Shown piece after piece: positions 27,654 through 62,631 of a DNA stretch of 64,000 bases (the first letter of the stretch is position 1; each line of letters opens with the position of its first letter). The position numbers and the translations under genes were made by a program. The DNA lies in contig JACQQD010000003.1 in NCBI GenBank assembly GCA_016207165.1, positions 47,343-111,342 on the forward strand, in the 5' to 3' direction. The stretch is from Candidatus Micrarchaeota archaeon (GTDB lineage: Archaea; Micrarchaeota; Micrarchaeia; Norongarragalinales; Norongarragalinaceae). A model generated the notes under the pieces. That model did not search any database. It saw only the letters and a list, made by a program, of their open reading frames with translations, and was not told the DNA's origin.

Positions 27654-28295
27654 CAAGACGCGGAACCACTCCACGAAGAACGCTTGTACTTCTTGGCCCA
27701 AAGTGATTTCCCGCTCAAAGGAAACGTCCCACGTGCCCGACGCAGGCCCCACCCAACGGATCAAGCGCTCGTCCGTGAACACGTTGACTCCGGCTTCCGG
27801 CGACACGGCCACGCGCAAGGCGTCCGGCGGCAGGCGCATGACCAACGCCATGTTGTTGCCCAACGTGACTTCACCAGGCTGGCCCAACGCGATTTTTTCC
27901 ATGTCCACGCCGTACACCGTCTTTCGGCTGGACACCGGAGTCAACAGCGTCAGGTTGGCCACGTCGTACTCCAACGTCACGGACGCCGCCGTAAAACCGG
28001 TCGGAAACTCGCGGGCGGCCACGATGCGCAAATTAAACGACGAACCCGTAGTGTGGTAACGGATGTTGCGCGAAAACTTCTGCCAATCCGCCAACGTCGT
28101 TTTGCCTTCTTTCAACACGAACTCGAACGCCTGAATTTCGCTGTCGCTATCCAAGTTCAAAAGCGATTTCTCAATCACGTGCGCGCTGCCGTCCTCCTTG
28201 AACTGGACGTCCATGGTAAAGCCGCGGTCCGTGTACGCGGAAATGGTGGAGGCGAGAACCAAAACCGCCAACACGAAAACAAGGCAACGACCCAT
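27573..28295 (-). CDS. Exported protein with C-terminal TM anchor
   Basis: Signal peptide, beta-rich body, C-terminal hydrophobic helix. Confidence 0.72.
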   Translation of the reverse strand: MGRCLVFVLAVLVLASTISAYTDRGFTMDVQFKEDGSAHVIEKSLLNLDSDSEIQAFEFVLKEGKTTLADWQKFSRNIRYHTTGSSFNLRIVAAREFPTGFTAASVTLEYDVANLTLLTPVSSRKTVYGVDMEKIALGQPGEVTLGNNMALVMRLPPDALRVAVSPEAGVNVFTDERLIRWVGPASGTWDVSFEREITLGQEVQAFFVEWFRVLSSSFILWVLLAFAAAVVGYKVLGAHR

Positions 28296-28337
28296 AGACA
28301 ACCAATAAGCTGGACGGGAAAATAAAAGGGTTGGCGC

Positions 28338-28664
28338 CTAGGACGCCGGACACGACGCCACGGCAAACACCGTTCCTAAGCCGTCTTCTTGCCAGACGGT
28401 CTTTGGGTACGCCACCCGCGTGGGGAAAAGACAGTCCTGCCACGCTTTTTTGGAAAAAGCCACGCAACACCCCGTTTTCGTTGACCAAAACGATTCCAAC
28501 CGCCCTTTTTCCACCGGGTCCGTCCACGCCGATTCGGGAGAGTGCCAAACCTCCTCCGCCGCCCACGCCGCCCGAATGCAATACAAAGGCACCGGCTGGA
28601 CGTGAACCAATCCCGTCCACTGCACCCAGAAGAAAAGCGTTAAAGCGGCTTCCAACGCCAACAC
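28338..28664 (-). CDS. Pilin-like small protein
   Basis: MLALEAALTLFFW hydrophobic N-terminus; lies in the pilin cluster. Confidence 0.5.
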   Translation of the reverse strand: MLALEAALTLFFWVQWTGLVHVQPVPLYCIRAAWAAEEVWHSPESAWTDPVEKGRLESFWSTKTGCCVAFSKKAWQDCLFPTRVAYPKTVWQEDGLGTVFAVASCPAS

Positions 28665-28667
28665 AGC

Positions 28668-28829
28668 CTAACCCCCCAAAACCGGGTGGGCCAACTCAAG
28701 CCACCTTGCTTGCAACGCCACCGCATCCACGTGCCAAACCACGTAACCGTGGAAAACAGTGACCCAGGAAAACGTGGCCGCCACCAAAAACAGAAACAGC
28801 GCCGCGGCCAACAGCACGTCAGCCTCCAC
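28668..28829 (-). CDS. Very small pilin-like protein (53 aa, absent from the ORF track)
   Basis: MEADVLLAAALFLFLVAATFSW...; tiles between its neighbours. Confidence 0.5.
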   Translation of the reverse strand: MEADVLLAAALFLFLVAATFSWVTVFHGYVVWHVDAVALQARWLELAHPVLGG

Positions 28830-29088
28830 GGCCGACCACCAAACCGTCGGACCACCGCACCTCCAGTCCGCAGGACGCGTTCATGCGTTCAGGCGAGAAA
28901 AAAAGCAGCGTGGTCCCCGAATTGGAAACGTCTTTGGCAAACAAGCAAAACCACGCCGCCCGACTTTCTTGGAGGTGGCCCTGAAAAGCGGCATCCAAGG
29001 AAGCCAGCCACGCACGTTGACCTATAAGCAGTGCGGCCACCAACACCAAGAAAGCGGCGAATGCCGCCATGAAGGAAAGCGCGTTCAA
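28819..29088 (-). CDS. Pilin-like small protein
   Basis: Hydrophobic N-terminus; 4-nt overlap with the upstream ORF. Confidence 0.55.
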   Translation of the reverse strand: MNALSFMAAFAAFLVLVAALLIGQRAWLASLDAAFQGHLQESRAAWFCLFAKDVSNSGTTLLFFSPERMNASCGLEVRWSDGLVVGRGG

Positions 29089-29624
29089 ACCGCCTCAACA
29101 CCCACCACGTCGCCAAAAGAGAATACCGCACCAAAAAACGGCGTTCCAAACACCGGAAACGGAAAATTCGGGCCCCACGACACGTTCAAGGAGTCGTCCA
29201 GGGACTCTAAAAAAAGAAGGCCTTCGGCCACCCCCACGTCCAGGCACCGCGGACACGGACGAATCGCTTGATCCGACCGCATCAAGTCCAGCCACGCCGA
29301 GACCTCGACATCGGAGACCAACCCGAACACCACGTCCAAGTCCACGCCCCGCTGAAGGTACGCCGCCTCCAAAAAACGTTCCCCGGCCACGGCGCGACGG
29401 CCGGCATCCAACGCCACCTCTTCCAAGGAACCGCCCCGCGCCCCAGACAGGGCATCATGAAGAAAATTCCTCACGTCGTGGCCCACCACGCGACGTTGGC
29501 TTAACTGCATCATGGCCAGGGAATAATCGTCAAGTTCCGAGGAAAAAGAAACCAGGCTAGCCGACCAACCCGTGGCCGCCGCGATGACGCCAAACACCCA
29601 AAAAAGCGCGAACCCCCTCCTCAC
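29085..29624 (-). CDS. Class III signal peptide (pilin-like) protein
   Basis: MRRG/FALFWVFGVIAAA; 4-nt overlap with the upstream ORF. Confidence 0.6.
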   Translation of the reverse strand: MRRGFALFWVFGVIAAATGWSASLVSFSSELDDYSLAMMQLSQRRVVGHDVRNFLHDALSGARGGSLEEVALDAGRRAVAGERFLEAAYLQRGVDLDVVFGLVSDVEVSAWLDLMRSDQAIRPCPRCLDVGVAEGLLFLESLDDSLNVSWGPNFPFPVFGTPFFGAVFSFGDVVGVEAV

Positions 29625-30007
29625 GAAAAAACCACGTCCACACCCCGGTTTTTCCGAACCGCCACCGTATGCGTGCCCTCCACCAAAGCCGCGCGCCCGC
29701 CGCCCTCGAAAACAGCTCCGACGCTCAAAGCGCCAAACGGCGACGTCCACGCCAACGAATCGCCGGACCAAACAACCGACACGTTGTGTTCGAGCGCAAA
29801 ACGCTCTTCATGCCAGAAGCCCGGCGGCATGACGTCGGCAGCGCGAACGGCAAAGCGCACGCGCTCAAAAGCGGCCTCGTCGGAAAAAAGTCCCGCCTGA
29901 TCCAGCGCCGCTTTCCTCACCGGTTCGGTGCCCACCCAGAACACGCCAACGACGCCCAAGATTCCAGCCAAGACCAAAAGCGCTTCCAAGGAGACTTGGC
30001 CCCGCAT
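29621..30007 (-). CDS. Class III signal peptide pilin
   Basis: MRG/QVSLEALLVLAGILGVVG. Confidence 0.78.
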   Translation of the reverse strand: MRGQVSLEALLVLAGILGVVGVFWVGTEPVRKAALDQAGLFSDEAAFERVRFAVRAADVMPPGFWHEERFALEHNVSVVWSGDSLAWTSPFGALSVGAVFEGGGRAALVEGTHTVAVRKNRGVDVVFS

Positions 30008-30008
30008 G

Positions 30009-30200
30009 TCAATTCATCTTCTTGATTTGCTTGAACACGTTTTCGGCTTGCTTGGACAGGACGTCCTTTCCCTCCACAGCCGTGGCTTGAAGCTGGGTGA
30101 CCAACAGCAAAGCCACCGCCACCAAAGCCGCGGTGAGAATCAGCATCTCCGCCGAGACTTGGGCAGTCTCGTCCTTCAGGAAGTCCCTCAACGCGTTCAT
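30009..30200 (-). CDS. Small class III signal peptide pilin (Flp-sized)
   Basis: DETA/QVSAEMLILTAALVAVALL; 63 aa. Confidence 0.8.
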   Translation of the reverse strand: MNALRDFLKDETAQVSAEMLILTAALVAVALLLVTQLQATAVEGKDVLSKQAENVFKQIKKMN

Positions 30201-30234
30201 GTAGAAAAAGCCGGGAAGCGCCGTGAAAAGCCTT

Positions 30235-30255
30235 GAGTAGAAAAAAAATCAACCC
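30235..30255. promoter_or_regulatory. Shared operator copy 1 (pilin promoter)
   Basis: GAGTAGA-AAAAAAA-TCAACCC beside a minus-strand ATAAAT. Confidence 0.6.
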
Positions 30256-30394
30256 AACCGATTTATGCAACGCGCTGAATCGAAGCCACCATCGTCCAAA
30301 ACAACCATAAAAAAAAGTAAGTACTTTAGACAGGTATCTAACGGAAACCCGGCGTATTGGAACGGTGTTTCGAATCCGGCAAGAAACCGGGCAC

Positions 30395-54183: not shown

Positions 54184-54771
54184 TTACGCCAAAGCCTCCT
54201 CCCGCGCCAAACGGCTTTGGCGATGACGCTTGAATTCACAAACGCAAAACTCGACTTCTTCACCGCATTCACACAACGGAGGCTTTTCCTCGAAAGGCGA
54301 CAACTCCTCGGCACTGCCCCAACGCACGACCTCAAATTCACAGTCGCCCCTTTTGACGCACGTGACCGGAACCGGCTCCCGTAATTTGGCTGAGTGGACA
54401 GCAATCAACGCGCCCGTCAAACCCCCCACAAAATACGCGTTTCCAAACCCGTCCCGGAACTTAGAAAATGGATTCAAAAGGCCCAAAAAAGAGTTCGGAG
54501 AAACAAATTGAACCCAGCCCACAAAACACGGTTGGCCATTGATTTTGGCCTTTTGCAACCTGCCTTGACGCCCCGACAACCGCTCAAAAACCGGCACATC
54601 CAAGTCCTCGTCCTGGAACAAGCGCTTGGTTAGAAAACCGGCATGTCGGACGTGAACGGGTGGCTCCGATGAAACGGATGGATCAGACCCGGGTTTGGCG
54701 TCCTTGAATACCTGCCTGGCTTGGCCTTCCAACACGTTCAACAACCCCCTCCCGTTAAAAAGCCCTTCCAA
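54184..54771 (-). CDS. Divergent V4R-like protein with Cys-rich tail
   Basis: GGLTGAL...TCVKRGDCEFEV V4R-like ending, then CEC..CVC; start uncertain. Confidence 0.55.
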   Translation of the reverse strand: MEGLFNGRGLLNVLEGQARQVFKDAKPGSDPSVSSEPPVHVRHAGFLTKRLFQDEDLDVPVFERLSGRQGRLQKAKINGQPCFVGWVQFVSPNSFLGLLNPFSKFRDGFGNAYFVGGLTGALIAVHSAKLREPVPVTCVKRGDCEFEVVRWGSAEELSPFEEKPPLCECGEEVEFCVCEFKRHRQSRLAREEALA

Positions 54772-54775
54772 AAAG

Positions 54776-54811
54776 TCCGATAAATAGCCTGGGTAAAGAA
54801 AAAATCAACCC
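54776..54811. repeat. Direct repeat A containing shared operator copy 2
   Basis: TCCGATAAATAGCCTGGGTAAAGAAAAAATCAACCC; near-identical to 55501-55532. Confidence 0.75.
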
Positions 54812-54877
54812 AAAGTTTAAATGCCAGAAACCCGGAGAGACATTCTCCGCATCATGCAAACGCATAAATCCTGGAAA

Positions 54878-54894
54878 CATTACGAATAGTAATG
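54878..54894. promoter_or_regulatory. Inverted-repeat operator of the RelE-type TA pair
   Basis: CATTAC-GAATA-GTAATG just before the antitoxin ATG. Confidence 0.55.
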
Positions 54895-54901
54895 AACCAT
54901 T

Positions 54902-55147
54902 ATGAAAAACATCAACGTGCGGGTGGACGAGTACGCTGACCGGGTGCTGGACGTCTTCCGTGCCGCCCGCGGACTGAACAACAAGTCGGAAGCATTCAAC
55001 GAATTGGTCCACGAGTTCGGGCCCAAGATTTTGGAACCGGAACTCAACGAGGAATTCGCGAAAACCGTCCTGGCCGAAACGCAGGCATGGGAAAAAAAAC
55101 ACGGCTCCCGGCGCAAAATGACCTTGGACGAACTGGAAAAACCGTGA
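54902..55147 (+). CDS. Antitoxin (DUF2683/RHH-like)
   Basis: INVRVDEY.DRVL...GL.NKSEA, EPELNEEF; directly upstream of the toxin. Confidence 0.78.
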   Translation: MKNINVRVDEYADRVLDVFRAARGLNNKSEAFNELVHEFGPKILEPELNEEFAKTVLAETQAWEKKHGSRRKMTLDELEKP

Positions 55148-55151
55148 GTCC

Positions 55152-55427
55152 ATGTTCGAATTCGATTTGTCGGACGCGCTCCGCCAAACCCTGGAGGAAT
55201 TGAAGCAACGGGACAAGAAACTGGCCGAAGCCCTCACCAGAAAAATCCGAGAAATCGTTTCACGTGACGTGCAAACCATCGACTATTACAAGAACCTCCG
55301 GACCCCACTCCAAGAATCCAAGCGCGTGCACGTCGGCCGCTTCGTTTTGATCTTCAAAGTCTACAAAGAGAAAAACTTCATCTTGTTCCAACGCTTTGAA
55401 CACCACGACAAAGCGTACCAGCTTTAA
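55152..55427 (+). CDS. RelE/YafQ-family toxin
   Basis: YKNLR.PL...KRVHVG.FVLIF...FEHHDKAY. Confidence 0.85.
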   Translation: MFEFDLSDALRQTLEELKQRDKKLAEALTRKIREIVSRDVQTIDYYKNLRTPLQESKRVHVGRFVLIFKVYKEKNFILFQRFEHHDKAYQL

Positions 55428-55500
55428 AACATCTAAAACAGGGTTCTGCTCCACCGGTCGGGAAACTCTCTTGGTTTGCTATAACGCTACCCTCGCGAAA

Positions 55501-55532
55501 TCCGATAAATAGCCAGGGTAAAAAATCAACTC
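55501..55532. repeat. Direct repeat B containing shortened operator copy 3
   Basis: TCCGATAAATAGCCAGGGTAAAAAATCAACTC; spacer 4 nt shorter than in repeat A. Confidence 0.75.
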
Positions 55533-55541
55533 GCATTTAAA

Positions 55542-56363
55542 CTACTTGAAGTAAGCGAGAGTTTCTTCCCGGATTTGCTCCGCCAACGCCGCATTCTTGG
55601 TGGCCACCACGGAAACGGGGTGCTCCCAAGAGAAAATGTGGCGGTACAGGCCGCCCAAATTCAAAGATCCAGAATTCCCGGACTCGTACAACCCGTCCAA
55701 CGCCATCTTCAGCTCTGGCGCCAAGAACAATTGGATGACGCGGTCCTCTGACACCATGACGTTGGCCGACGAAGCACAGTCCACATCCAATTCCACGTTA
55801 GAGCCGAATTCCTTCCAAAAATTCATCAATAATTTGTCCAACTTCGAGTGGCCACGGCACAACACGTAATGGGGATTGGATTGCAAGAATTTTTTCATGG
55901 GAGCGTAATGCTCTCGGGCCACGGCAATGGAGGGACACGCCCGGTACCAGTGAGAGACCAACGGCGAGGCATAATCATGCAATTCGTAATCCTGGCGCAA
56001 CGCCCCCAGCAACGCGTACAAGGATTCAGCGTACGAGGAAAACGTAACGGAAAAAGAGTCCAAATCCCGTTTGAGCCGTTCCAACTCCAACCTTGGCAGG
56101 TTCTTCGGCGCCGACAACGACTCGGCCTGCCGCCGCGTTTCGTACACCCAATCCAAACTCAACGCGTACTGCTTCCGGGCTTCCACCAAAGCGCCGGCGG
56201 CCAAGAGCTTCTTGACGGCCTTGTTCACTTCCGGGTATGTCACCACCCCCTCGTCACGGCGCAAATGCGAATGCAGTTTCCGGACAGTCAACGGCCACTC
56301 CGAAGACAAAACGTCCAAAACCCTGGACCGCACGTCATCCTCCGAACCCAAAAAAGAATGCAA
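55542..56363 (-). CDS. Winged-helix regulator with C-terminal domain (paralog 1)
   Basis: VLSSEWPLTVRKLH...TYPEVNKAVKKL...G.L...YALSLDW; ends IREETLAYFK. Confidence 0.8.
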   Translation of the reverse strand: MHSFLGSEDDVRSRVLDVLSSEWPLTVRKLHSHLRRDEGVVTYPEVNKAVKKLLAAGALVEARKQYALSLDWVYETRRQAESLSAPKNLPRLELERLKRDLDSFSVTFSSYAESLYALLGALRQDYELHDYASPLVSHWYRACPSIAVAREHYAPMKKFLQSNPHYVLCRGHSKLDKLLMNFWKEFGSNVELDVDCASSANVMVSEDRVIQLFLAPELKMALDGLYESGNSGSLNLGGLYRHIFSWEHPVSVVATKNAALAEQIREETLAYFK

Positions 56364-56398
56364 CCAAGACCCACCCCCGCATTCAACGCCTAAACGGC

Positions 56399-57253
56399 TT
56401 ACTTGAAGTACTTCAACGTCTCCCCACGAATCTCGTCGGCTAACTCTGGATTGCTGGTAATAATCAAAGACACGTTTCCTTTGAGGCCGTACACAAACGA
56501 GTACAAAGCCGCAAAGTCTATTTGACCTTCATCACTTTTTTTGAAAACCGAGTTTATCCCTTTCCGGACGGGAGGTGAAAGGAAAAGCTGGACTACTTTG
56601 TCTCGCGTGACAAGCAAATCACAGCTGGTTGCGCAGCTCACCCCAATATGGACCTTTTTTCCTAAATCTTTCCAGAAGTCAGCCAAAACCGAATCCAATG
56701 CGGTTTGCTGATTGATGACTGCATAGTGTTCGCCAAGAGACATCATGCGTCGTAGTTGTTCAAATTCTTTCTTGGAAACGCAAGTAACCGGCCAAGCATG
56801 GTACCAGTGCGCTACAGTGGTGTCGGGTTCTTTGTTTTCCGAATAGTCGCGATCCATATTGTCCAAAAGCGCGTACAAAGCTTCCATATACGAGTCAAAT
56901 GACAATGTCACCGAGGAAGCGTTCTTTATTTCTCCAAACTCAAGTGCCGCCCTCCCACTTCGTTTGGCCTCCATCTTGTTAACAAAGGAATTCAAGTCCG
57001 TAATCCATTTCTGGTCCAAAACGTATTTTCGCTTGTCTTCAATCAAAACGCCTTGTCCCGTGAGAACCCGAAGCGCCTTGTGCACGCCCTGATACGTCGC
57101 CGGAGAACCGAAGTCCTTCTTGATAGTTTGAAAAACCTGTTTGGCGGAAAGATGCTCTTCCCGCGACAACACCAAGATGACCAAGTCCTTGATTTCCGAC
57201 TTGGAAGCCGAAAACGAGCTGACACGAGAGGCTAACACGACAGCAACCTCCAA
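56399..57253 (-). CDS. Winged-helix regulator with C-terminal domain (paralog 2)
   Basis: VLSREEHLSAKQVF...TYQGVHKALRVL...GVL...YVLDQKW; ends IRGETLKYFK. Confidence 0.8.
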   Translation of the reverse strand: MEVAVVLASRVSSFSASKSEIKDLVILVLSREEHLSAKQVFQTIKKDFGSPATYQGVHKALRVLTGQGVLIEDKRKYVLDQKWITDLNSFVNKMEAKRSGRAALEFGEIKNASSVTLSFDSYMEALYALLDNMDRDYSENKEPDTTVAHWYHAWPVTCVSKKEFEQLRRMMSLGEHYAVINQQTALDSVLADFWKDLGKKVHIGVSCATSCDLLVTRDKVVQLFLSPPVRKGINSVFKKSDEGQIDFAALYSFVYGLKGNVSLIITSNPELADEIRGETLKYFK

Positions 57254-57394
57254 GACCGTAAAAACCCAGAAAAAAGGCTAAAAAGGCCGTTGAACCTTCT
57301 CCGGACCAACGGCAACACGTCAAGACGGATTAACCCTCCCTGCATCGGCCTTCTCTCCTGAAGAGAGGCTTTCAGACAGTTTAATATAAACCTT

Positions 57395-57415
57395 GAGTTG
57401 ATTTTTTGTATACCG
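57395..57415. promoter_or_regulatory. Shared operator copy 4 (KaiC-prenyltransferase-V4R promoter)
   Basis: GAGTTGA-TTTTTTG-TATACCG, 4 nt after TATAAA (57385-57390). Confidence 0.6.
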
Positions 57416-57477
57416 TTCCCTCGCTATCTGTCGAAGAGATATAAAAGGGAAACGGGCATGAAAGAGTTGGCCGGTAA

Positions 57478-58239
57478 ATGGGAGAACGTAAGAAAACAGG
57501 TATCTCAGGGCTTGACAAAGCACTTAATGGAGGGATACCAAACGGGAACATAGTGTTGATTTCTGGTGGAGCAGGCACTGGGAAAACAACGCTATGTCTT
57601 CAATTTTTGGTAGAAGGGGCAAAAAATGGGGAAAAAACGCTATACATAAGCACCGAACAAAACGACGGAGAAATAAAACGCCAAGCTGAGCCATACGGGT
57701 GGCAAATAGCAGAACTTGAAGAAAAAAACTTGTTCAAAGTGCTGCACGTTAATATCTTGAAAGATGAAGATAATCTAGAAAAAATAAAAAAAACAATTGA
57801 AGAGCTTAAGCCAGAACGGATAGTTCTTGATTCTTTAAGTACATACTCAGACTACACTGCGGTAACACAATACGCAAGAGAACTCCTTTTAAAACGTGGC
57901 GGGGTCGCTCAGAGAGCTATAGATCAAATCATGCCTCAAAACATATCAGAAAAAGTAATCATAAAGCGAATGCTAGCAACACTAATAAATGACCTGAAAA
58001 GCCCCGGCGCAACGACACTAATCACATCGGAGTTACCCGAAACAAAAGGCCAGCTAAGCTCCGATGGAATTTCAGAATTCTTAGCAGACGGGGTCATATT
58101 GCTGTACTATTGGGAAATTGGCGAAGTAGAAGAACATGCAATGAAGATAAGGAAAATGAGGTACACCCCTCACGATTCTAGAGCGTTAATGTACAACATG
58201 AGCCGAAGTGGTATAGAAGTAAAAGCAGGAGAAATCTGA
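57478..58239 (+). CDS. Single-domain KaiC-like (RAD55/GvpD) ATPase
   Basis: TGISGLD, GGAGTGKTT, LDSL, EFLADGVI.L, IRKMR. Confidence 0.9.
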   Translation: MGERKKTGISGLDKALNGGIPNGNIVLISGGAGTGKTTLCLQFLVEGAKNGEKTLYISTEQNDGEIKRQAEPYGWQIAELEEKNLFKVLHVNILKDEDNLEKIKKTIEELKPERIVLDSLSTYSDYTAVTQYARELLLKRGGVAQRAIDQIMPQNISEKVIIKRMLATLINDLKSPGATTLITSELPETKGQLSSDGISEFLADGVILLYYWEIGEVEEHAMKIRKMRYTPHDSRALMYNMSRSGIEVKAGEI

Positions 58240-58913
58240 TGGAAAACACTAATAGTCTAAAACACGTGTTTGTTATTCCCGATGGAAACAGACGCTGGGC
58301 GAGAGAGAACAAAAAGACATACAAAGAGGTCTACGAGAAGGTCGCCATGGAAATTACGCCGAACTTAATTGAAGAGGTCTTACTAAAACAGGGAGTTCAA
58401 GAACTAACAATATTCATGCTTTCACGAAGTAACTTGATAAAACGAAGTCTTGACGAAGTACTACCTATTCTAAAGGCCCAAGAAAGACTATACGGCTGGA
58501 TTTCAGAAAATAAGGTGATGCAGAAATCGGGGGCTAGTTTTAAAGTAATTGGAGACAAGACGCTCCTGCCAAGATCATACTTAGATGCCTGTGAGAGATT
58601 AGAAAAAATTAACCATGGGAAAAAAAAGTGTAATTTTCTGGTCGGATACGATGCTGAATGGGAGCTACTCCAAGCAGTCAAAAAAATCGAGAGAATCGAA
58701 AGCGCAGACATTGTAAAAGAGCTAGCTCTAAACTCTGAAATTGATTTAATGATTAGAACGGGATTTGAGCACAGAATTTCGGGCGGCCCACTAATACAGC
58801 TGAAATTTGCAGAGTTAGTTTTCTGTGATTTTCACTACCCAGAATTGACTCGGAAAAAAATTCAGGAGATAATTAAACAATACGGAAAAAAGGAAAGGCG
58901 ATTCGGAAGATGA
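58239..58913 (+). CDS. Divergent cis-prenyltransferase (UppS fold)
   Basis: HVFVIPDGNRRWA, DLMIRTG.E.RIS, AEL.F. Confidence 0.85.
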   Translation: MENTNSLKHVFVIPDGNRRWARENKKTYKEVYEKVAMEITPNLIEEVLLKQGVQELTIFMLSRSNLIKRSLDEVLPILKAQERLYGWISENKVMQKSGASFKVIGDKTLLPRSYLDACERLEKINHGKKKCNFLVGYDAEWELLQAVKKIERIESADIVKELALNSEIDLMIRTGFEHRISGGPLIQLKFAELVFCDFHYPELTRKKIQEIIKQYGKKERRFGR

Positions 58914-59476
58914 TGGAATTTCTACAAAAACTATTAATGATGCGGCAGTTCCAAATGGGTAAAGGCAGAACGACAATACTGGGTCAGAGAGTGCTACTGG
59001 GACCAGTAGAAATACTCGTACCGGCAACACAATTAGCAATAGACCAACCATTAGAAGGGGCAAAAATATACGAAAAGGTTAGAACAACATTTAATGAGGG
59101 TTGGTCGGAAGCAGTAAGAAAAATGTACGGTATAAAGTCTCAAGACTATTTTAAATTCTTAATAGATATGTCAAATCTCGGAGGGTGGGGCGATGGCAAG
59201 TTAATCGAATTCGAACCAGCCACACTCGAAGGTAAATTCATTAACTACAATACGGCAATGGCAGAGTATTTCAAAGGAAAAACAAGCAGACCAGTAGACC
59301 ATATTTGGAGAGGATTGGCCGCAGGGGGGCTTACTAAAGCTTTTAAGACAGAAATAGACTGGTTTGAAACTAAATGCATCGCATGCGGCGAAGATAGATG
59401 CGAATACATTTTTAAACCAAGAAAAAAATTCGAGGAAAATAGAATAAAAGAAATAGAATACCAAATACCAATATAA
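58910..59476 (+). CDS. V4R-domain protein
   Basis: GGWG, PVDHIWRG..AG, ETKCIACGEDRCEYI. Confidence 0.85.
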   Translation: MMEFLQKLLMMRQFQMGKGRTTILGQRVLLGPVEILVPATQLAIDQPLEGAKIYEKVRTTFNEGWSEAVRKMYGIKSQDYFKFLIDMSNLGGWGDGKLIEFEPATLEGKFINYNTAMAEYFKGKTSRPVDHIWRGLAAGGLTKAFKTEIDWFETKCIACGEDRCEYIFKPRKKFEENRIKEIEYQIPI

Positions 59477-59478
59477 CG

Positions 59479-60027
59479 CTAGAACTGAAGCGGCAGAGGT
59501 TGATTCGGGAAACTTGAGGAAATTGGCGACCAATAATTGAAAAAGGCACGCGACAGCTTTTGCCAATTATGATTACGATGCGCTAGGCGAATTTCGAAAA
59601 ACATAGTGAAAGTAGACCTAGCAACTAAGATTGGCCTAAACAGACCAAATTTGAAGTAATGTTCAAGTAGCAAATTTAGTAAAATGCTAAACAAATTAGA
59701 ATGGCGATATGCTCGAATCCAGCCCACACGGAATTGCACAGATGCAGTTTCCTGACCTAACAAGTTATGTGCCGAGACAAATTCGTTTTTGATTTTAGAA
59801 TAGTAATAATCTTCCCGCGTTGAATCACCAGACAACTGGCAATTTCTAGCTAAATCTGCATATTGAAAAGTTTTCAAGACGTGTCTCGAAGCACCGACGG
59901 CTTTTTTTCTTGGAAAGCCTAATATAACTAAAAAGGAAACGCAACACGCTAACAACTCAGGCCACTTTTTTTCGTCATGAAACCTCCAAAGATTGGAATG
60001 CAATTTTCCGATTTGAAATAATTTCAT
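59479..60027 (-). CDS. Hypothetical protein in the AT-rich island
   Basis: 182-aa ORF following kaiC-2; W/H-rich helical pattern. Confidence 0.65.
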   Translation of the reverse strand: MKLFQIGKLHSNLWRFHDEKKWPELLACCVSFLVILGFPRKKAVGASRHVLKTFQYADLARNCQLSGDSTREDYYYSKIKNEFVSAHNLLGQETASVQFRVGWIRAYRHSNLFSILLNLLLEHYFKFGLFRPILVARSTFTMFFEIRLAHRNHNWQKLSRAFFNYWSPISSSFPNQPLPLQF

Positions 60028-60036
60028 AAAAAGAGC

Positions 60037-60783
60037 CTAACCAAACCCACTAACTTTCTTTACGTGCAAGCCCTGTTCCGTGATGTCAAAAGGATGCGTT
60101 TCCAAGCTGTGCTTGGTGCCCCGCATTTTTCGGACGTAGAGGGTGCGGGCGGCCTGCTGACCCATGCTTAAGAAGTTCAATAGAACCACGCCATCCGCGA
60201 CGTATTCTTCGACGCCGTATTTGGAGAACTTGACGGGTTCGTCTCCACTGGCTTCCGGCAATTCCGTGGTGACGATGGAACTCATGCCGGATTTGGTGAG
60301 GACTTGGCTGACGCGGAGGATGGCTCGCCGGATTTCGTTCTCGTTTTCCAGTTGGAAGCCCAAGGCGGGAATGGAGTCAATCACGAGGCGTTTGGCGCCG
60401 ATGCGCCGCGCAATGCCTAAAACGTCGGTTAAGACGCGGTTCACGTCCAACTGGTTGGCGGCCAAGGCGTGGTGTTCGCTTGAAGGAGTTCCGGCGCGGG
60501 CGGAGGCGCCGTCCACGATGGCAAACAAGTTGTGGCGTTCCAACTCTTGGAGGTTCCATCCGAAGCGAAGCATGTCGGAGCGGATGTTCTCCGGGGATTC
60601 GTCGAACGTCACGAAGACGCCGGGTTCCTGGTGCTGGGTCACGCCGTTGTAGAGGAATTGCATGGAGAAGATGCTTTTGCCGGTGCCGCATGCCCCAGCA
60701 ACAAGCATGGTGCGGTTCTTGGGGAAACCGCCTTCAATGAGGTCGTCAAGGCCCGGAATGCCGGTGGGCGCGCGTTCAACCAT
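60037..60783 (-). CDS. Single-domain KaiC-like ATPase
   Basis: TGIPGLD, GACGTGKS, IDSI, VEEYVADGV, VRKMRGTKHS. Confidence 0.92.
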   Translation of the reverse strand: MVERAPTGIPGLDDLIEGGFPKNRTMLVAGACGTGKSIFSMQFLYNGVTQHQEPGVFVTFDESPENIRSDMLRFGWNLQELERHNLFAIVDGASARAGTPSSEHHALAANQLDVNRVLTDVLGIARRIGAKRLVIDSIPALGFQLENENEIRRAILRVSQVLTKSGMSSIVTTELPEASGDEPVKFSKYGVEEYVADGVVLLNFLSMGQQAARTLYVRKMRGTKHSLETHPFDITEQGLHVKKVSGFG

Positions 60784-60810
60784 ACGGGGAAAGGAACGAG
60801 GGCCAAGCGC

Positions 60811-61512
60811 TTAAATCTTTTGGTTTAGCGCCTTGGAAAGGCCTTGGAACAGGTTTTCGTGCGTCAAGGAAAGCCACCCGTTTTTGCGGCAGGCGCGCTT
60901 GAGGCCGGGGCCGGCATTAAGCGCTATGGGTAATCCGACTTGTTCCATCATTTGTTCGTCCAAGACCATGTCACCAAAGCACAGGCTTTCATGCAAATCG
61001 ATTCCGTGGTGGTGTGCGTACGTCAAAACAGCCCACTTTTTTTGTGCGGGGTCCGTCAAGTTGTGCACGATTCGGCCAGTAAAGCGGCCGTTCTTGGTTT
61101 TCAGGCGGGTTCCGTAGGCGGCGGCAAAGCCCAGGGATTCGGTGAAGGGTTCCACCACGTCTTGAAAGGCGCCGGACACGGCCACCAACCTAAAGTGTTT
61201 CTTCTTCAGTATGGAAAGCAGTTTTTTGGTGTACGGATAAAAATTCGCGTGCTCGGATTGCAGGAACAACTGGTTCAGGGCCTTGAATTTCCGGACTTGA
61301 GTGCCTTTCAGGGAAGAAACGATAAGGGAAACGAGTTTCTGGGTGGTTTCAAGCTCGGTCAAGTGGTGTTTCTTGTGTTCCGAGTGGATGCGGTGCATGG
61401 CGGCCAATTGGCGGGCGTTGAACACGCCGTGTTCGGCTAGGAAATGCAGGTACTTGGGAATCGTGTTTTCCTGGAGAAGCGTGCCGGTCACGTCAAAGAA
61501 AGCGGCTTTCAT
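60811..61512 (-). CDS. HAD-IB family hydrolase
   Basis: FFDVTGTL, VSG, K, FGD...D..M. Confidence 0.85.
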   Translation of the reverse strand: MKAAFFDVTGTLLQENTIPKYLHFLAEHGVFNARQLAAMHRIHSEHKKHHLTELETTQKLVSLIVSSLKGTQVRKFKALNQLFLQSEHANFYPYTKKLLSILKKKHFRLVAVSGAFQDVVEPFTESLGFAAAYGTRLKTKNGRFTGRIVHNLTDPAQKKWAVLTYAHHHGIDLHESLCFGDMVLDEQMMEQVGLPIALNAGPGLKRACRKNGWLSLTHENLFQGLSKALNQKI

Positions 61513-61553
61513 GGGTGAGTTGAACGAAAAAGAGGTATTTCAAGCCAGTGGGT

Positions 61554-61892
61554 CTAAACGGGTTCAATGACGATTTTGTGGCCGAGCTTGGTGACTTTGA
61601 CTTCGTCGCCGGCTTTTAGCTTCAGTTGGCGTTCCAAATCAGAGGGAATGCGGAAGACCAGGGAGTTTCCGACTTCCGAGAGCGTGCGGTACAACGTCAA
61701 AGGCTCCGGCCAAACACCCAAACGCCGCGCCAATTCAATGGTGCGCTGGGACTCCTTTTCAAAAGGAAACTCTTGACCGCAATTCGAACAGCGCTCGCCT
61801 TTCTCCACGAAAACGTAGCCGCCGATTTCAGACACGATGTTGTCGGTTTTTCCCAGTCGGCCCGTGTTGCAGGCCGGGCATTTTTTGGTCAT
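61554..61892 (-). CDS. Zn-finger/AbrB-like protein (orphan antitoxin-like)
   Basis: CPAC...CSNCG then VGNSLVFRIP..L...LKLKAGDEV. Confidence 0.82.
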   Translation of the reverse strand: MTKKCPACNTGRLGKTDNIVSEIGGYVFVEKGERCSNCGQEFPFEKESQRTIELARRLGVWPEPLTLYRTLSEVGNSLVFRIPSDLERQLKLKAGDEVKVTKLGHKIVIEPV

Positions 61893-61996
61893 TTTCAGTC
61901 AATTTCGGGGATAACGAGTGAATTTCATCCGTGATAAAGATTGGGCAGAACAAGTAGAAAAAGAAGGGGGGAGGGTCAGGAGGAGCGTGAAACTGG

Positions 61997-62016
61997 GGAG
62001 GGGGTGCACCCCCTCC
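61997..62016. repeat. Perfect 20-bp GC-rich palindrome
   Basis: GGAGGGGGTGCACCCCCTCC. Confidence 0.85.
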
Positions 62017-62023
62017 GCGGTTC

Positions 62024-62044
62024 CGGTTGACCTTTTTTCTACCC
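62024..62044. promoter_or_regulatory. Shared operator copy 5
   Basis: CGGTTGA-CCTTTTT-TCTACCC, 5 nt from a minus-strand TTAAAG. Confidence 0.55.
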
Positions 62045-62094: not shown

Positions 62095-62631
62095 TTAAGC
62101 GTTCGGGTTTTCGCGCGCCTTCTCTGGGGAAGTGGCCTTCCCTCCTTGCATGGAAACCCGCCCGCTTTTCCTCCCTTTTTCCAACGCCACCTGACCGCCC
62201 AAATACCCGAAGTCAAACGATACCACGGCCAAAACGGGTGTGAAGGAACCCGAAGCAAACGAGGTCAAAAGCGCGGCGGCAGGCAGAAATGGTCTTGGAT
62301 AAAGAAAGTCGACGTGGATTTTCTCGTCGGCCAAGGCGGCCAGCAAACAGAGGAACCCAAAAACAAGCGGGAAAACGGGAACGCCGAAGTAAAGCGCGAC
62401 CACCCCAAACGCGGCGACGCCCAGCACGTGGGAAAGCGAATCGATTTTTCCGGCCAACGCGTTGGCCAAAACCGCGGGAAGAAAGACCAACGCCACCAGA
62501 GCGTCGTGGGTTACCAAATAACCCAAAAGCATGCCGTAGCCCAAAGCCGTCAAATAAGAGAGGGGGTGGTGCAGGGAGTCCGTTAGCTTGGTCAAAAAAC
62601 CCGCGACAAGCGCGCCCAGGAAAACGAACAT
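62095..62631 (-). CDS. Multi-pass membrane protein
   Basis: Hydrophobic; K.TD, GKIDSLSH, DE and RP conserved-looking residues. Confidence 0.75.
   Translation of the reverse strand: MFVFLGALVAGFLTKLTDSLHHPLSYLTALGYGMLLGYLVTHDALVALVFLPAVLANALAGKIDSLSHVLGVAAFGVVALYFGVPVFPLVFGFLCLLAALADEKIHVDFLYPRPFLPAAALLTSFASGSFTPVLAVVSFDFGYLGGQVALEKGRKSGRVSMQGGKATSPEKARENPNA

Follow-up and report, generated by a model that had tools for sequence, protein, structure and literature searches.

A conserved DPANN module that places KaiC-like ATPases and a V4R protein beside an extra cis-prenyltransferase: a candidate ligand-controlled accessory isoprenoid-lipid pathway

Introduction

Why would an archaeon encode an extra cis-prenyltransferase between a KaiC-like ATPase and a presumed sensor of hydrophobic ligands? 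The question is raised by a locus near the end of a 64,000-nt stretch of DNA from a Candidatus Micrarchaeota archaeon (assembly GCA_016207165.1, contig JACQQD010000003.1, positions 47,343 to 111,342), which is referred to here as the window. The 111-kb contig ends with the window, and the genome measures 1.27 Mb at 90% completeness. The sequencing runs that contain the locus DNA are groundwater metagenomes only. We find that the genes of this locus recur together in other DPANN archaea. Our favored reading, to which we give a probability of roughly one half, is that they form a conserved module, consisting of a regulatory core and swappable isoprenoid cargo, that serves as a ligand-controlled accessory isoprenoid-lipid pathway.

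Archaeal KaiC-like ATPases were reportedly proposed to be signal transduction hubs by Makarova, Galperin and Koonin in 2017 (mBio). They have been put forward as the main hubs of archaeal signaling; to our knowledge, an input ligand, a target enzyme or an operator has not been defined for any of them. The module described here offers a candidate sensor (the V4R protein), a candidate metabolic target that perhaps also supplies the ligand (the prenyltransferase and its partner), and a regulator with a probable binding site. PMC5847659 cites the 2017 proposal of KaiC-like ATPases as archaeal signaling hubs. As in that proposal, the locus places single-domain KaiC-like ATPases beside small sensor-domain proteins and winged helix-turn-helix (wHTH) regulators, and a role is predicted from gene neighborhoods. 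However, the neighborhood of this locus adds paralogues of isoprenoid enzymes (cis-prenyltransferase, UbiA, and the geranylgeranyl-reductase family), a putative operator, and wHTH-V4R fusions. A literature search of full article texts returned no article linking KaiC with cis-prenyltransferase, UbiA or geranylgeranyl reductase; an earlier description is possible. Because the hub proposal is known and the module may already have been listed, we do not rate it as categorically new. The new elements are the TrmB build of the regulators, the putative palindromic operator, the wHTH-V4R fusions, the UbiA and reductase cargo, and the low-GC block in which the prenyltransferase gene lies.

Gene content of the locus

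Genes were called from a list of open reading frames (ORFs), and the proteins of the window were then scanned with the Pfam and NCBIfam models. At the center of the locus are three plus-strand genes: kaiC1 (57478-58239; PF06745, 190 bits), the extra cis-prenyltransferase paralogue cisPT (58239-58913; PF01255, 128.6 bits), and the gene for a stand-alone V4R protein, the presumed hydrophobic-ligand sensor (58910-59476; PF02830). A preliminary description, made from the letters of the window alone, had called these genes a coupled operon, and the ORF list contains the overlaps on which that claim depends (1 nt between kaiC1 and cisPT, 4 nt between cisPT and V4R). The coordinates agree with the remaining gene arrangement in that description as well. 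Two tandem minus-strand regulator genes, wHTH1 (55542-56363, 273 residues) and wHTH2 (56399-57253, 284 residues), diverge from kaiC1. A second minus-strand series converges on the operon and consists of unk182 (59479-60027), encoding an all-alpha protein without a known family, kaiC2 (60037-60783; PF06745, 235 bits), and a gene identified in the scans as a HAD-IB hydrolase (60811-61512).

An additional cis-prenyltransferase

The locus enzyme covers PF01255 in full (profile positions 1-219 of 219; cut-off 27 bits). On the uppS equivalog model TIGR00055 it scores 100.1 bits, under the cut-off of 109.55 that marks a housekeeping UppS. A second cis-prenyltransferase is encoded on another contig of the same genome and reaches 204.6 bits on PF01255, compared with 128.6 for the locus copy. 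We searched 41 genomes, comprising 40 relatives and the window's own. A cis-prenyltransferase is present in 40 of these; a second copy occurs only in the window's genome and in one other (G017; related genomes and loci are given by our G and L numbers), and it is absent from both genomes of the same genus. All five of the other module genomes tested carry a housekeeping copy in addition (about 206 bits).

A tree was calculated from 91 rows, 19 of the 110 available having been left out for lengths above 330 residues. The locus enzyme falls within an 18-row clade, supported by a Shimodaira-Hasegawa-like approximate likelihood ratio test (SH-aLRT) value of 99, that stands apart from bacterial enzymes and from the housekeeping enzymes that these genomes also encode. 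The genome's own housekeeping enzyme groups among those of its relatives, whereas the locus copy does not. The preliminary description had named a sole housekeeping UppS as one of two findings that would undo its proposal; the separate genomic copy, the distinct clade and the second copies in module genomes show that the locus enzyme is not one. Relatives are rare: among 5.8 billion proteins, six match at 37-64% identity, and the next matches are at the level of generic UppS (E 1e-24).

In cis-prenyltransferases, catalytic and substrate-binding roles belong to a DGNRR motif, to Ser, Asn and Arg residues of helix 2, to an RTG-E-R-S motif, to a late Glu, and to a C-terminal RxG. The residues invariant in the clade (8-9 sequences) are D15, G16, N17, R18, R19, S62, N65, R69, R173, T174, G175, R179, S181, E192, R220, R221 and G223, ending in a C-terminal RRFG. 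The locus enzyme thus keeps the fold family and all conserved motifs of UppS and other cis-prenyltransferases. It differs from UppS in being a second copy, in its separate clade and sub-threshold score, and in its coupling to KaiC and V4R genes. The best solved match of the clade is 3ugs, a true undecaprenyl diphosphate synthase (E 4.7e-45), and in the comparison with solved structures the clade is no closer to unusual archaeal or head-to-middle enzymes.

Co-occurrence and cargo in other genomes

The ORFs of loci containing a clade cisPT were searched with the window's proteins and with hidden Markov models (HMMs) built from them. Of the 13 genome loci, 11 have a gene for KaiC, V4R, the wHTH family or unk182 next to the clade cisPT, and the two loci without partners (L038 and L041) are both cut close to cisPT. 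Metagenome loci were counted when they scored at least 216 bits on the clade cisPT HMM (n = 31). Partners are present in 23, two more have UbiA only, and five of the six that have none are contigs of 1.2-4.2 kb. By comparison, just one of 111 control loci with a non-clade cisPT (mean length 12.6 kb) has such a neighbor. The module loci derive from Micrarchaeota and Iainarchaeota/Diapherotrites, and gene order is shuffled between them. The co-occurrence in other genomes on which the preliminary description had staked its proposal is therefore found.

Several of these loci contain further isoprenoid genes. UbiA directly adjoins the clade cisPT in L034 and L036 and also in L042 and L044, where the two genes share 4 nt. 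In L037 it follows V4R within the same cluster. All five of these genomes encode at least one further UbiA. Genes for flavoproteins of the geranylgeranyl-reductase family are located beside the module in L034, L036, L037 and G017, and individual loci also encode a polyprenyl synthase, PcrB, an HD phosphohydrolase or a FIST protein. Homologues of unk182 occur in about 20 loci and UbiA in 10, and the two are never found together. This distribution across loci that are not independent fits a role for unk182 and UbiA as alternative second enzymes.

The canonical role of the cis-prenyltransferase family is the synthesis of glycan-carrier lipids, and reductases of the geranylgeranyl-reductase family saturate archaeal dolichol. 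The extra cisPT could similarly make a polyprenyl-phosphate sugar carrier for glycosylation of pili or the cell surface, with KaiC, V4R and the regulators coupling carrier supply to expression. That canonical role and the match to 3ugs favor such a carrier, as do the half-sites at a pilin-like operon described below and the genes located just 5' of the module in AR10 (L033), which encode a GT2 glycosyltransferase, an LPG_synthase_TM protein and two sugar epimerases/dehydratases. However, glycosylation genes adjoin the module in only this one of the 13 genome loci, the coupling of UbiA to cisPT in L042 and L044 points to prenyl transfer onto a non-sugar acceptor, and a housekeeping cisPT is already present in every module genome tested. 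We consider a sugar carrier rather unlikely.

A low-GC block between conserved flanks

The genes kaiC1, cisPT, V4R and unk182 form a block of unusual composition. Their GC contents are 0.409, 0.391, 0.383 and 0.388, respectively, compared with 0.564 for the genome, and their third-position GC contents (GC3) are 0.34-0.40, compared with 0.56-0.75 for neighboring genes. The flanking kaiC2 (0.578) and wHTH1 (0.546) are native in composition. G001 and G002, the two genomes of the same genus, have these flanks too (KaiC2 74-76% identical, wHTH2 60-67%, HAD about 50%, and phosphoribosyl pyrophosphate (PRPP) synthase 74%) and are missing the block. In its place, the corresponding loci (L155 in G001 and L156 in G002) contain UbiA together with distant versions of KaiC1 (34% identity) and V4R (28%). 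The combination of shared flanks and differing cargo indicates that the locus is a conserved regulatory frame with exchangeable cargo.

The exact arrangement of the window is also present in four metagenome contigs (L175-L178), one of which (L176) repeats the GC mosaic gene by gene. The mosaic is therefore no assembly artefact. Contigs of one sequencing run (X1), which may be the sample from which the window was assembled, span both GC junctions; they cover 55500-59106 and 59633-61600, leaving 59107-59632 uncovered.

A block of this kind could be a passenger in a variable hot spot, next to a core that controls something else, so that the neighbors would share no common pathway. Its foreign composition is what one would expect of a passenger, G001 and G002 carry other cargo at the same place, and toxin-antitoxin pairs and transposase genes are nearby. 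Against this, start and stop codons overlap within kaiC1-cisPT-V4R, and the association is seen in two phyla and with varying gene order while being nearly absent from controls. In addition, independent metagenome contigs have the same mosaic and arrangement. A mere passenger is quite improbable on this evidence.

unk182

Homologues of unk182 were found only beside clade cisPT genes, in L031, L033, L035, L040 and 15 metagenome loci; a word-based homologue search returned only unk182 itself. The AlphaFold2 model (predicted local distance difference test, pLDDT, 94.3) is an eight-helix bundle. The protein is not hydrophobic, and residues H17, D18, D58, W103, H150 and N154 are invariant. No clearly related fold emerged from Foldseek (E at least 0.56), from a wide VIA-align search (Z at most 7.1, which is the noise level for helical proteins), from a PDB profile search (nothing below E 0.44) or from the Atlas (score at most 0.84). 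An HD phosphohydrolase is encoded at the same position in L032, and a relationship between it and unk182 was considered and rejected (hhalign 0.2%).

KaiC ATPases and the V4R protein

KaiC1 (253 residues) is matched by PF06745 in two stretches, and alignment with KaiC2 (248 residues) reveals an insertion of about 30 residues. Both proteins consist of one domain. Walker A and B are kept in KaiC1, and GxxGTGK and hhhhDS are invariant in the KaiC alignment. Neither protein is a circadian double-domain KaiC (134.8 and 214.2 bits on NF006799/TIGR02655, against a cut-off of 408). KaiC2 is 74-78% identical to the copies in G001, G002, L176 and L177, and it adjoins the clade cisPT in L031, L040 and L180. 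Orthologues of KaiC1 occur beside V4R in most module loci.

According to two articles (PMC2253512; PMC2614490), V4R domains bind hydrophobic ligands and signal in cis or in trans. The locus protein scores 30.6 bits on PF02830 as a protein (cut-off 31) and 32.7 bits in a six-frame search. A profile of its family matches the solved protein MJ1460 (2osd; E 1.9e-6) as well as the phenol sensors MopR and PoxR, and E153, C156 and C164 are invariant in the family alignment. In MopR, PoxR and DmpR a V4R-type sensor governs an ATPase. The resemblance to these proteins lies in a V4R-type sensor with a Cys/Glu motif (profile matches at E 2.7e-5 to 1.9e-3). However, their V4R is fused to an AAA+ sigma-54 activator, whereas that of the locus is a separate protein encoded beside a RecA-type KaiC. 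A search for fused V4R proteins of at least 402 residues turned up none, a negative that carries little weight, and a predicted complex of KaiC1 and V4R scored 0.01, which weighs neither for nor against binding. Hydropathy analysis found no hydrophobic segments in V4R (maximum 1.16) or KaiC, so any sensing would be intracellular.

One locus lacks the usual sensor. In L039 (L039:1293-4708) the ORFs between KaiC1 and the clade cisPT encode, in this order, a 125-residue product, a FIST-domain protein and a 332-residue product. V4R was not found in the search of this locus, which suggests that the sensor may be replaced.

TrmB-like regulators

Neither wHTH1 nor wHTH2 matches a Pfam or NCBIfam family (no match to TrmB or to its C-terminal regulator domain at E 0.01), and Pfam TrmB (PF01978) matches only one of 16 members of their family (E 0.0043). 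The two regulators are 30% identical, and wHTH1 scores 224.8 bits on the family HMM. We modeled wHTH2 with AlphaFold2 (123 sequences, pLDDT 90). Foldseek returned TrmBL2 (5bpd) first (E 1.8e-9), then TrmB (E 4.7e-5), followed by nucleases of the phospholipase D (PLD) fold. VIA-align superimposes residues 12-98 on wHTH domains (Zur, Z 11.6, root-mean-square deviation (rmsd) 1.1 Å) and residues 110-284 on the PLD fold (NucT, Z 10.3, rmsd 3.2 Å over 133 residues). As modeled, the regulators have the build of TrmB and TrmBL2 (3qph and 5bpd), with an N-terminal wHTH and a C-terminal PLD-like domain. They differ from these proteins in having no sequence-level membership of the family and no second sugar-binding subdomain. 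Because no HxK motif was seen in the family consensus, the PLD-like domain is probably not catalytic.

The family has exactly two copies in the window's genome, both at the locus. Its profile detects 2417 representative clusters at E at most 0.001 and 632 at 1e-30, and members were found in 30 of 401 genomes of the phylum. Arrays of at least two copies occur with KaiC1, KaiC2 or V4R in L155, L156, L157, L158 and L161. Furthermore, in four proteins (one each in L031 and L157, two in L180) the PLD-like domain is replaced by a complete V4R domain, fused to the wHTH and linker of the family (roughly HMM positions 4-120). These fusions tie V4R sensing to the DNA-binding domain of the regulator family. 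MsvR of methanogens is a wHTH-V4R redox regulator and resembles these proteins in its fusion; the window differs from it in having separate genes, another wHTH family and an interposed pair of KaiC proteins. The confinement of both genomic copies to the locus, the conserved putative operator described next, and the fusions uphold the earlier assignment of the regulators to the system.

A putative operator

A putative operator, ATAAACCTTGAGTTGAT, is located at 57386-57402 in the divergent wHTH2/kaiC1 intergenic region, 76 nt 5' of the kaiC1 ATG. It is one mismatch from ATCAAC-N5-GTTGAT. The preliminary description had reported an operator motif recurring at four promoters of the locus, and this motif proves to be half of the palindrome ATCAAC-N5/6-GTTGAT. 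Exact copies of the half-site GTTGATTTTTT are present at 54799(-), 55520(-) and 57397(+) within the locus, and the rest of the window has two more, at 30243(-) and 22998(-). Allowing one mismatch gives 12 matches in the window compared with 4.95 expected, and none of 100 shuffles reaches 12. Recurrence above shuffled sequence is thus real. However, the locus has three copies rather than four, two of them inside a 55-nt direct repeat, and only the kaiC1 copy forms the full palindrome.

We searched for the palindrome, with one mismatch allowed, in 620,542 bases comprising the window and 34 related loci. There are 34 sites, against a mean of 7.08 and a maximum of 14 in block shuffles, and 21 of the 34 are within 300 nt of the end of a wHTH gene, across many genomes. 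In L175, L176 and L177 the palindrome is at the same distance from kaiC1, within intergenic sequence that is otherwise unalignable by eye. Judging by sequence and position, ATCAAC-N5/6-GTTGAT is likely the operator of the TrmB-like regulators. A family of more than 2,000 sequence clusters without a Pfam match is thereby given a probable binding site.

The two repeat-associated half-sites are within promoter-like elements on the minus strand. One element (54773-54829, with GTTGATTTTTT at 54799-54809) is directly 5' of a 195-residue ORF, p195, and aligns with the element upstream of kaiC1. The second copy (55498-55550) is at the 3' end of wHTH1, beyond a toxin-antitoxin pair. The repeat copies (the 55-nt direct repeat, families D6, D7 and I2) are 89% identical over 28 nt and 71% over 31 nt. 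The repeat, with its promoter-like element, brackets the toxin-antitoxin pair at 54902-55427.

Further sites were noted outside the locus. The half-site GGGTTGATTTTTTTT at 30243(-) precedes a 63-residue pilin-like ORF in a minus-strand run (28000-30300) of small ORFs with N-termini that look pilin-like by eye (for example 30009-30200 and 29621-30007); this run may be part of the regulon. Two more half-sites, GAGTTGATTTTTTTTC, are present elsewhere in the genome (C11:18428 and C11:19209, minus strand). Inspected by eye, one has a small RHH-like ORF and then a PIN-like ORF on its 3' side, while the other precedes a small membrane ORF that is close to a gene for a P-loop ATPase. Full palindromes were found just 5' of genes for large secreted or surface proteins in L032 (L032:16637; LamG/DUF2341 protein, 823 aa) and L033 (L033:15256; PPC-domain protein, 838 aa).

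Sites of this kind also bear on the hypothesis put forward in the preliminary description, in which the cisPT product is a diffusible or contact-delivered lipid signal that a V4R/KaiC quorum- or host-sensing circuit relays to the regulators. Such a signal would suit a hydrophobic-ligand sensor translationally coupled to a lipid-chain enzyme, cargo that varies within one genus as interaction genes would, and operator-like sites whose positions are 5' of a pilin-like ORF here and of large surface proteins in L032 and L033. However, the module loci contain no conserved exporter, receptor or secretion gene, sensing by V4R and KaiC would be intracellular given their lack of hydrophobic segments, and, with UbiA and a reductase as partners, the product looks more like a bulk lipid retained in the membrane. 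A lipid signal is decidedly unlikely as an explanation; given the UbiA and geranylgeranyl-reductase partners elsewhere, a membrane or envelope lipid is the simpler reading.

A proposed control circuit

In the accessory lipid pathway that we favor, the core would comprise KaiC1 with its insertion, KaiC2, the stand-alone V4R protein, and one to five tandem TrmB-like regulators. The cargo would be the extra cisPT together with either unk182, as in the window, or an extra UbiA, often accompanied by the geranylgeranyl-reductase-family flavoprotein. The cisPT would elongate an allylic diphosphate with isopentenyl diphosphate (IPP) of the cell's own making. The genome encodes HMG-CoA reductase, polyprenyl synthase and PcrB and can therefore make IPP and allylic primers. 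The second enzyme would then modify or transfer the chain, yielding a specialized polyprenyl lipid of the membrane or envelope. V4R may bind this lipid or another hydrophobic molecule and thereby alter the state of the KaiC ATPases, which in turn would determine how the TrmB-like regulators bind DNA, both at the divergent promoter between wHTH2 and kaiC1 and at related sites, including those of p195 and the pilin-like operon. Such a pathway would be relevant to how DPANN archaea, with their small cells, shape membrane and surface.

A more specific version is that a dedicated pair of enzymes (cisPT with the new-fold unk182 or with UbiA) makes a novel cis-polyprenyl-derived lipid, which the cell reads through V4R and the two KaiC ATPases so as to reset transcription of envelope and pilus genes. 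We regard this version as unlikely. If true, it would define the first lipid-ligand input for an archaeal KaiC hub, and possibly a host-sensing channel.

Several observations weigh against the accessory lipid pathway. In G001 a Na+/H+ exchanger gene is part of the KaiC2-KaiC1-V4R operon, indicating that the core also controls non-isoprenoid cargo. No module-type UbiA or reductase was found in the window's own genome. Of 20 further wHTH loci, 12 lack KaiC and V4R genes within about 10 kb, nearly all of these 12 having a single copy of the family; the regulators thus also occur outside the module. As for the half-site copies, they may be ordinary promoter elements or be left over from a duplication. 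The co-occurrence counts overstate independence because the loci cluster phylogenetically and include near-duplicates (L175/L176, L177/L178 and L185/L186; L184 and L033 are one record). The controls are for the most part bacterial loci, from the candidate phyla radiation, where KaiC-like modules would not be expected. Finally, which proteins touch, what V4R binds, what the enzymes make and in which direction control runs are what we infer from this context.

Neighboring genes

The HAD hydrolase had been suggested as a possible phosphatase of the pathway. This suggestion is not supported, as the gene is kept only by synteny within the genus and was not found in other module loci, and we do not count it as a module member. 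A pathway to phosphoribosyl-polyprenyl phosphate by UbiA, HAD and PRPP synthase, which are neighbors in G002, was also considered. It was dropped because the UbiA copies score 109 bits on models for digeranylgeranylglyceryl phosphate (DGGGP) synthase-type enzymes and only 34 bits on those for decaprenyl-phosphate phosphoribosyltransferase.

The minus-strand gene for p195 (54184-54771), 3' of the regulators, had been described as a second V4R-like gene, a claim that has to be withdrawn. Comparison with the V4R profile by hhalign gives a probability of 1.5% and aligns only a 32-column stretch around a C-x2-G-x-CEF motif. The protein has no Pfam or NCBIfam match and an Atlas score of at most 0.79. 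It is restricted to the genus: the ORFs in the corresponding position of G001 and G002 match it with 52-54% identity over 76-84 residues. It is possibly a member of the regulon.

To the left of the regulators, 54902-55427 encodes a YafQ/RelE-like toxin (TIGR00053, E 5.3e-13) and an RHH-like partner. A toxin-antitoxin pair 35-40% identical to it is present at the same relative place in G001. In L035, phage-type integrase and large terminase genes (L035:4139-5332 and L035:14802-16049) are within 6 kb of the module, and a provirus may be located beside it. An anti-virus or conflict system built around the KaiC-like ATPases would fit the adjacent toxin-antitoxin genes, a cassette that varies between conserved flanks, and the integrase and terminase genes near the L035 copy. 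We nevertheless find such a system extremely improbable, since the cargo consists of biosynthetic enzymes and PADLOC yielded nothing beyond weak P-loop hits (mad8, E 4e-7 and 4e-6), with the other nine proteins unmatched.

The minus-strand run that holds HAD, kaiC2 and unk182 is headed by a gene for a 112-residue zinc-ribbon/AbrB protein (61554-61892; PF04014, E 7.7e-8). It has an N-terminal CxxC...CxxC, identified by eye, and a C-terminal AbrB/MazE-type domain, and a fragment 63% identical to it is encoded near KaiC2 in L180. Further along, 62095-62631 encodes a 178-residue integral membrane protein (hydropathy maximum 2.36) without a family match; the product of a neighboring gene in G002 is 46% identical to it. 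In L031 a relative of this protein is fused to an S-adenosylmethionine decarboxylase domain (L031:8155-9078), directly 5' of KaiC2-cisPT.

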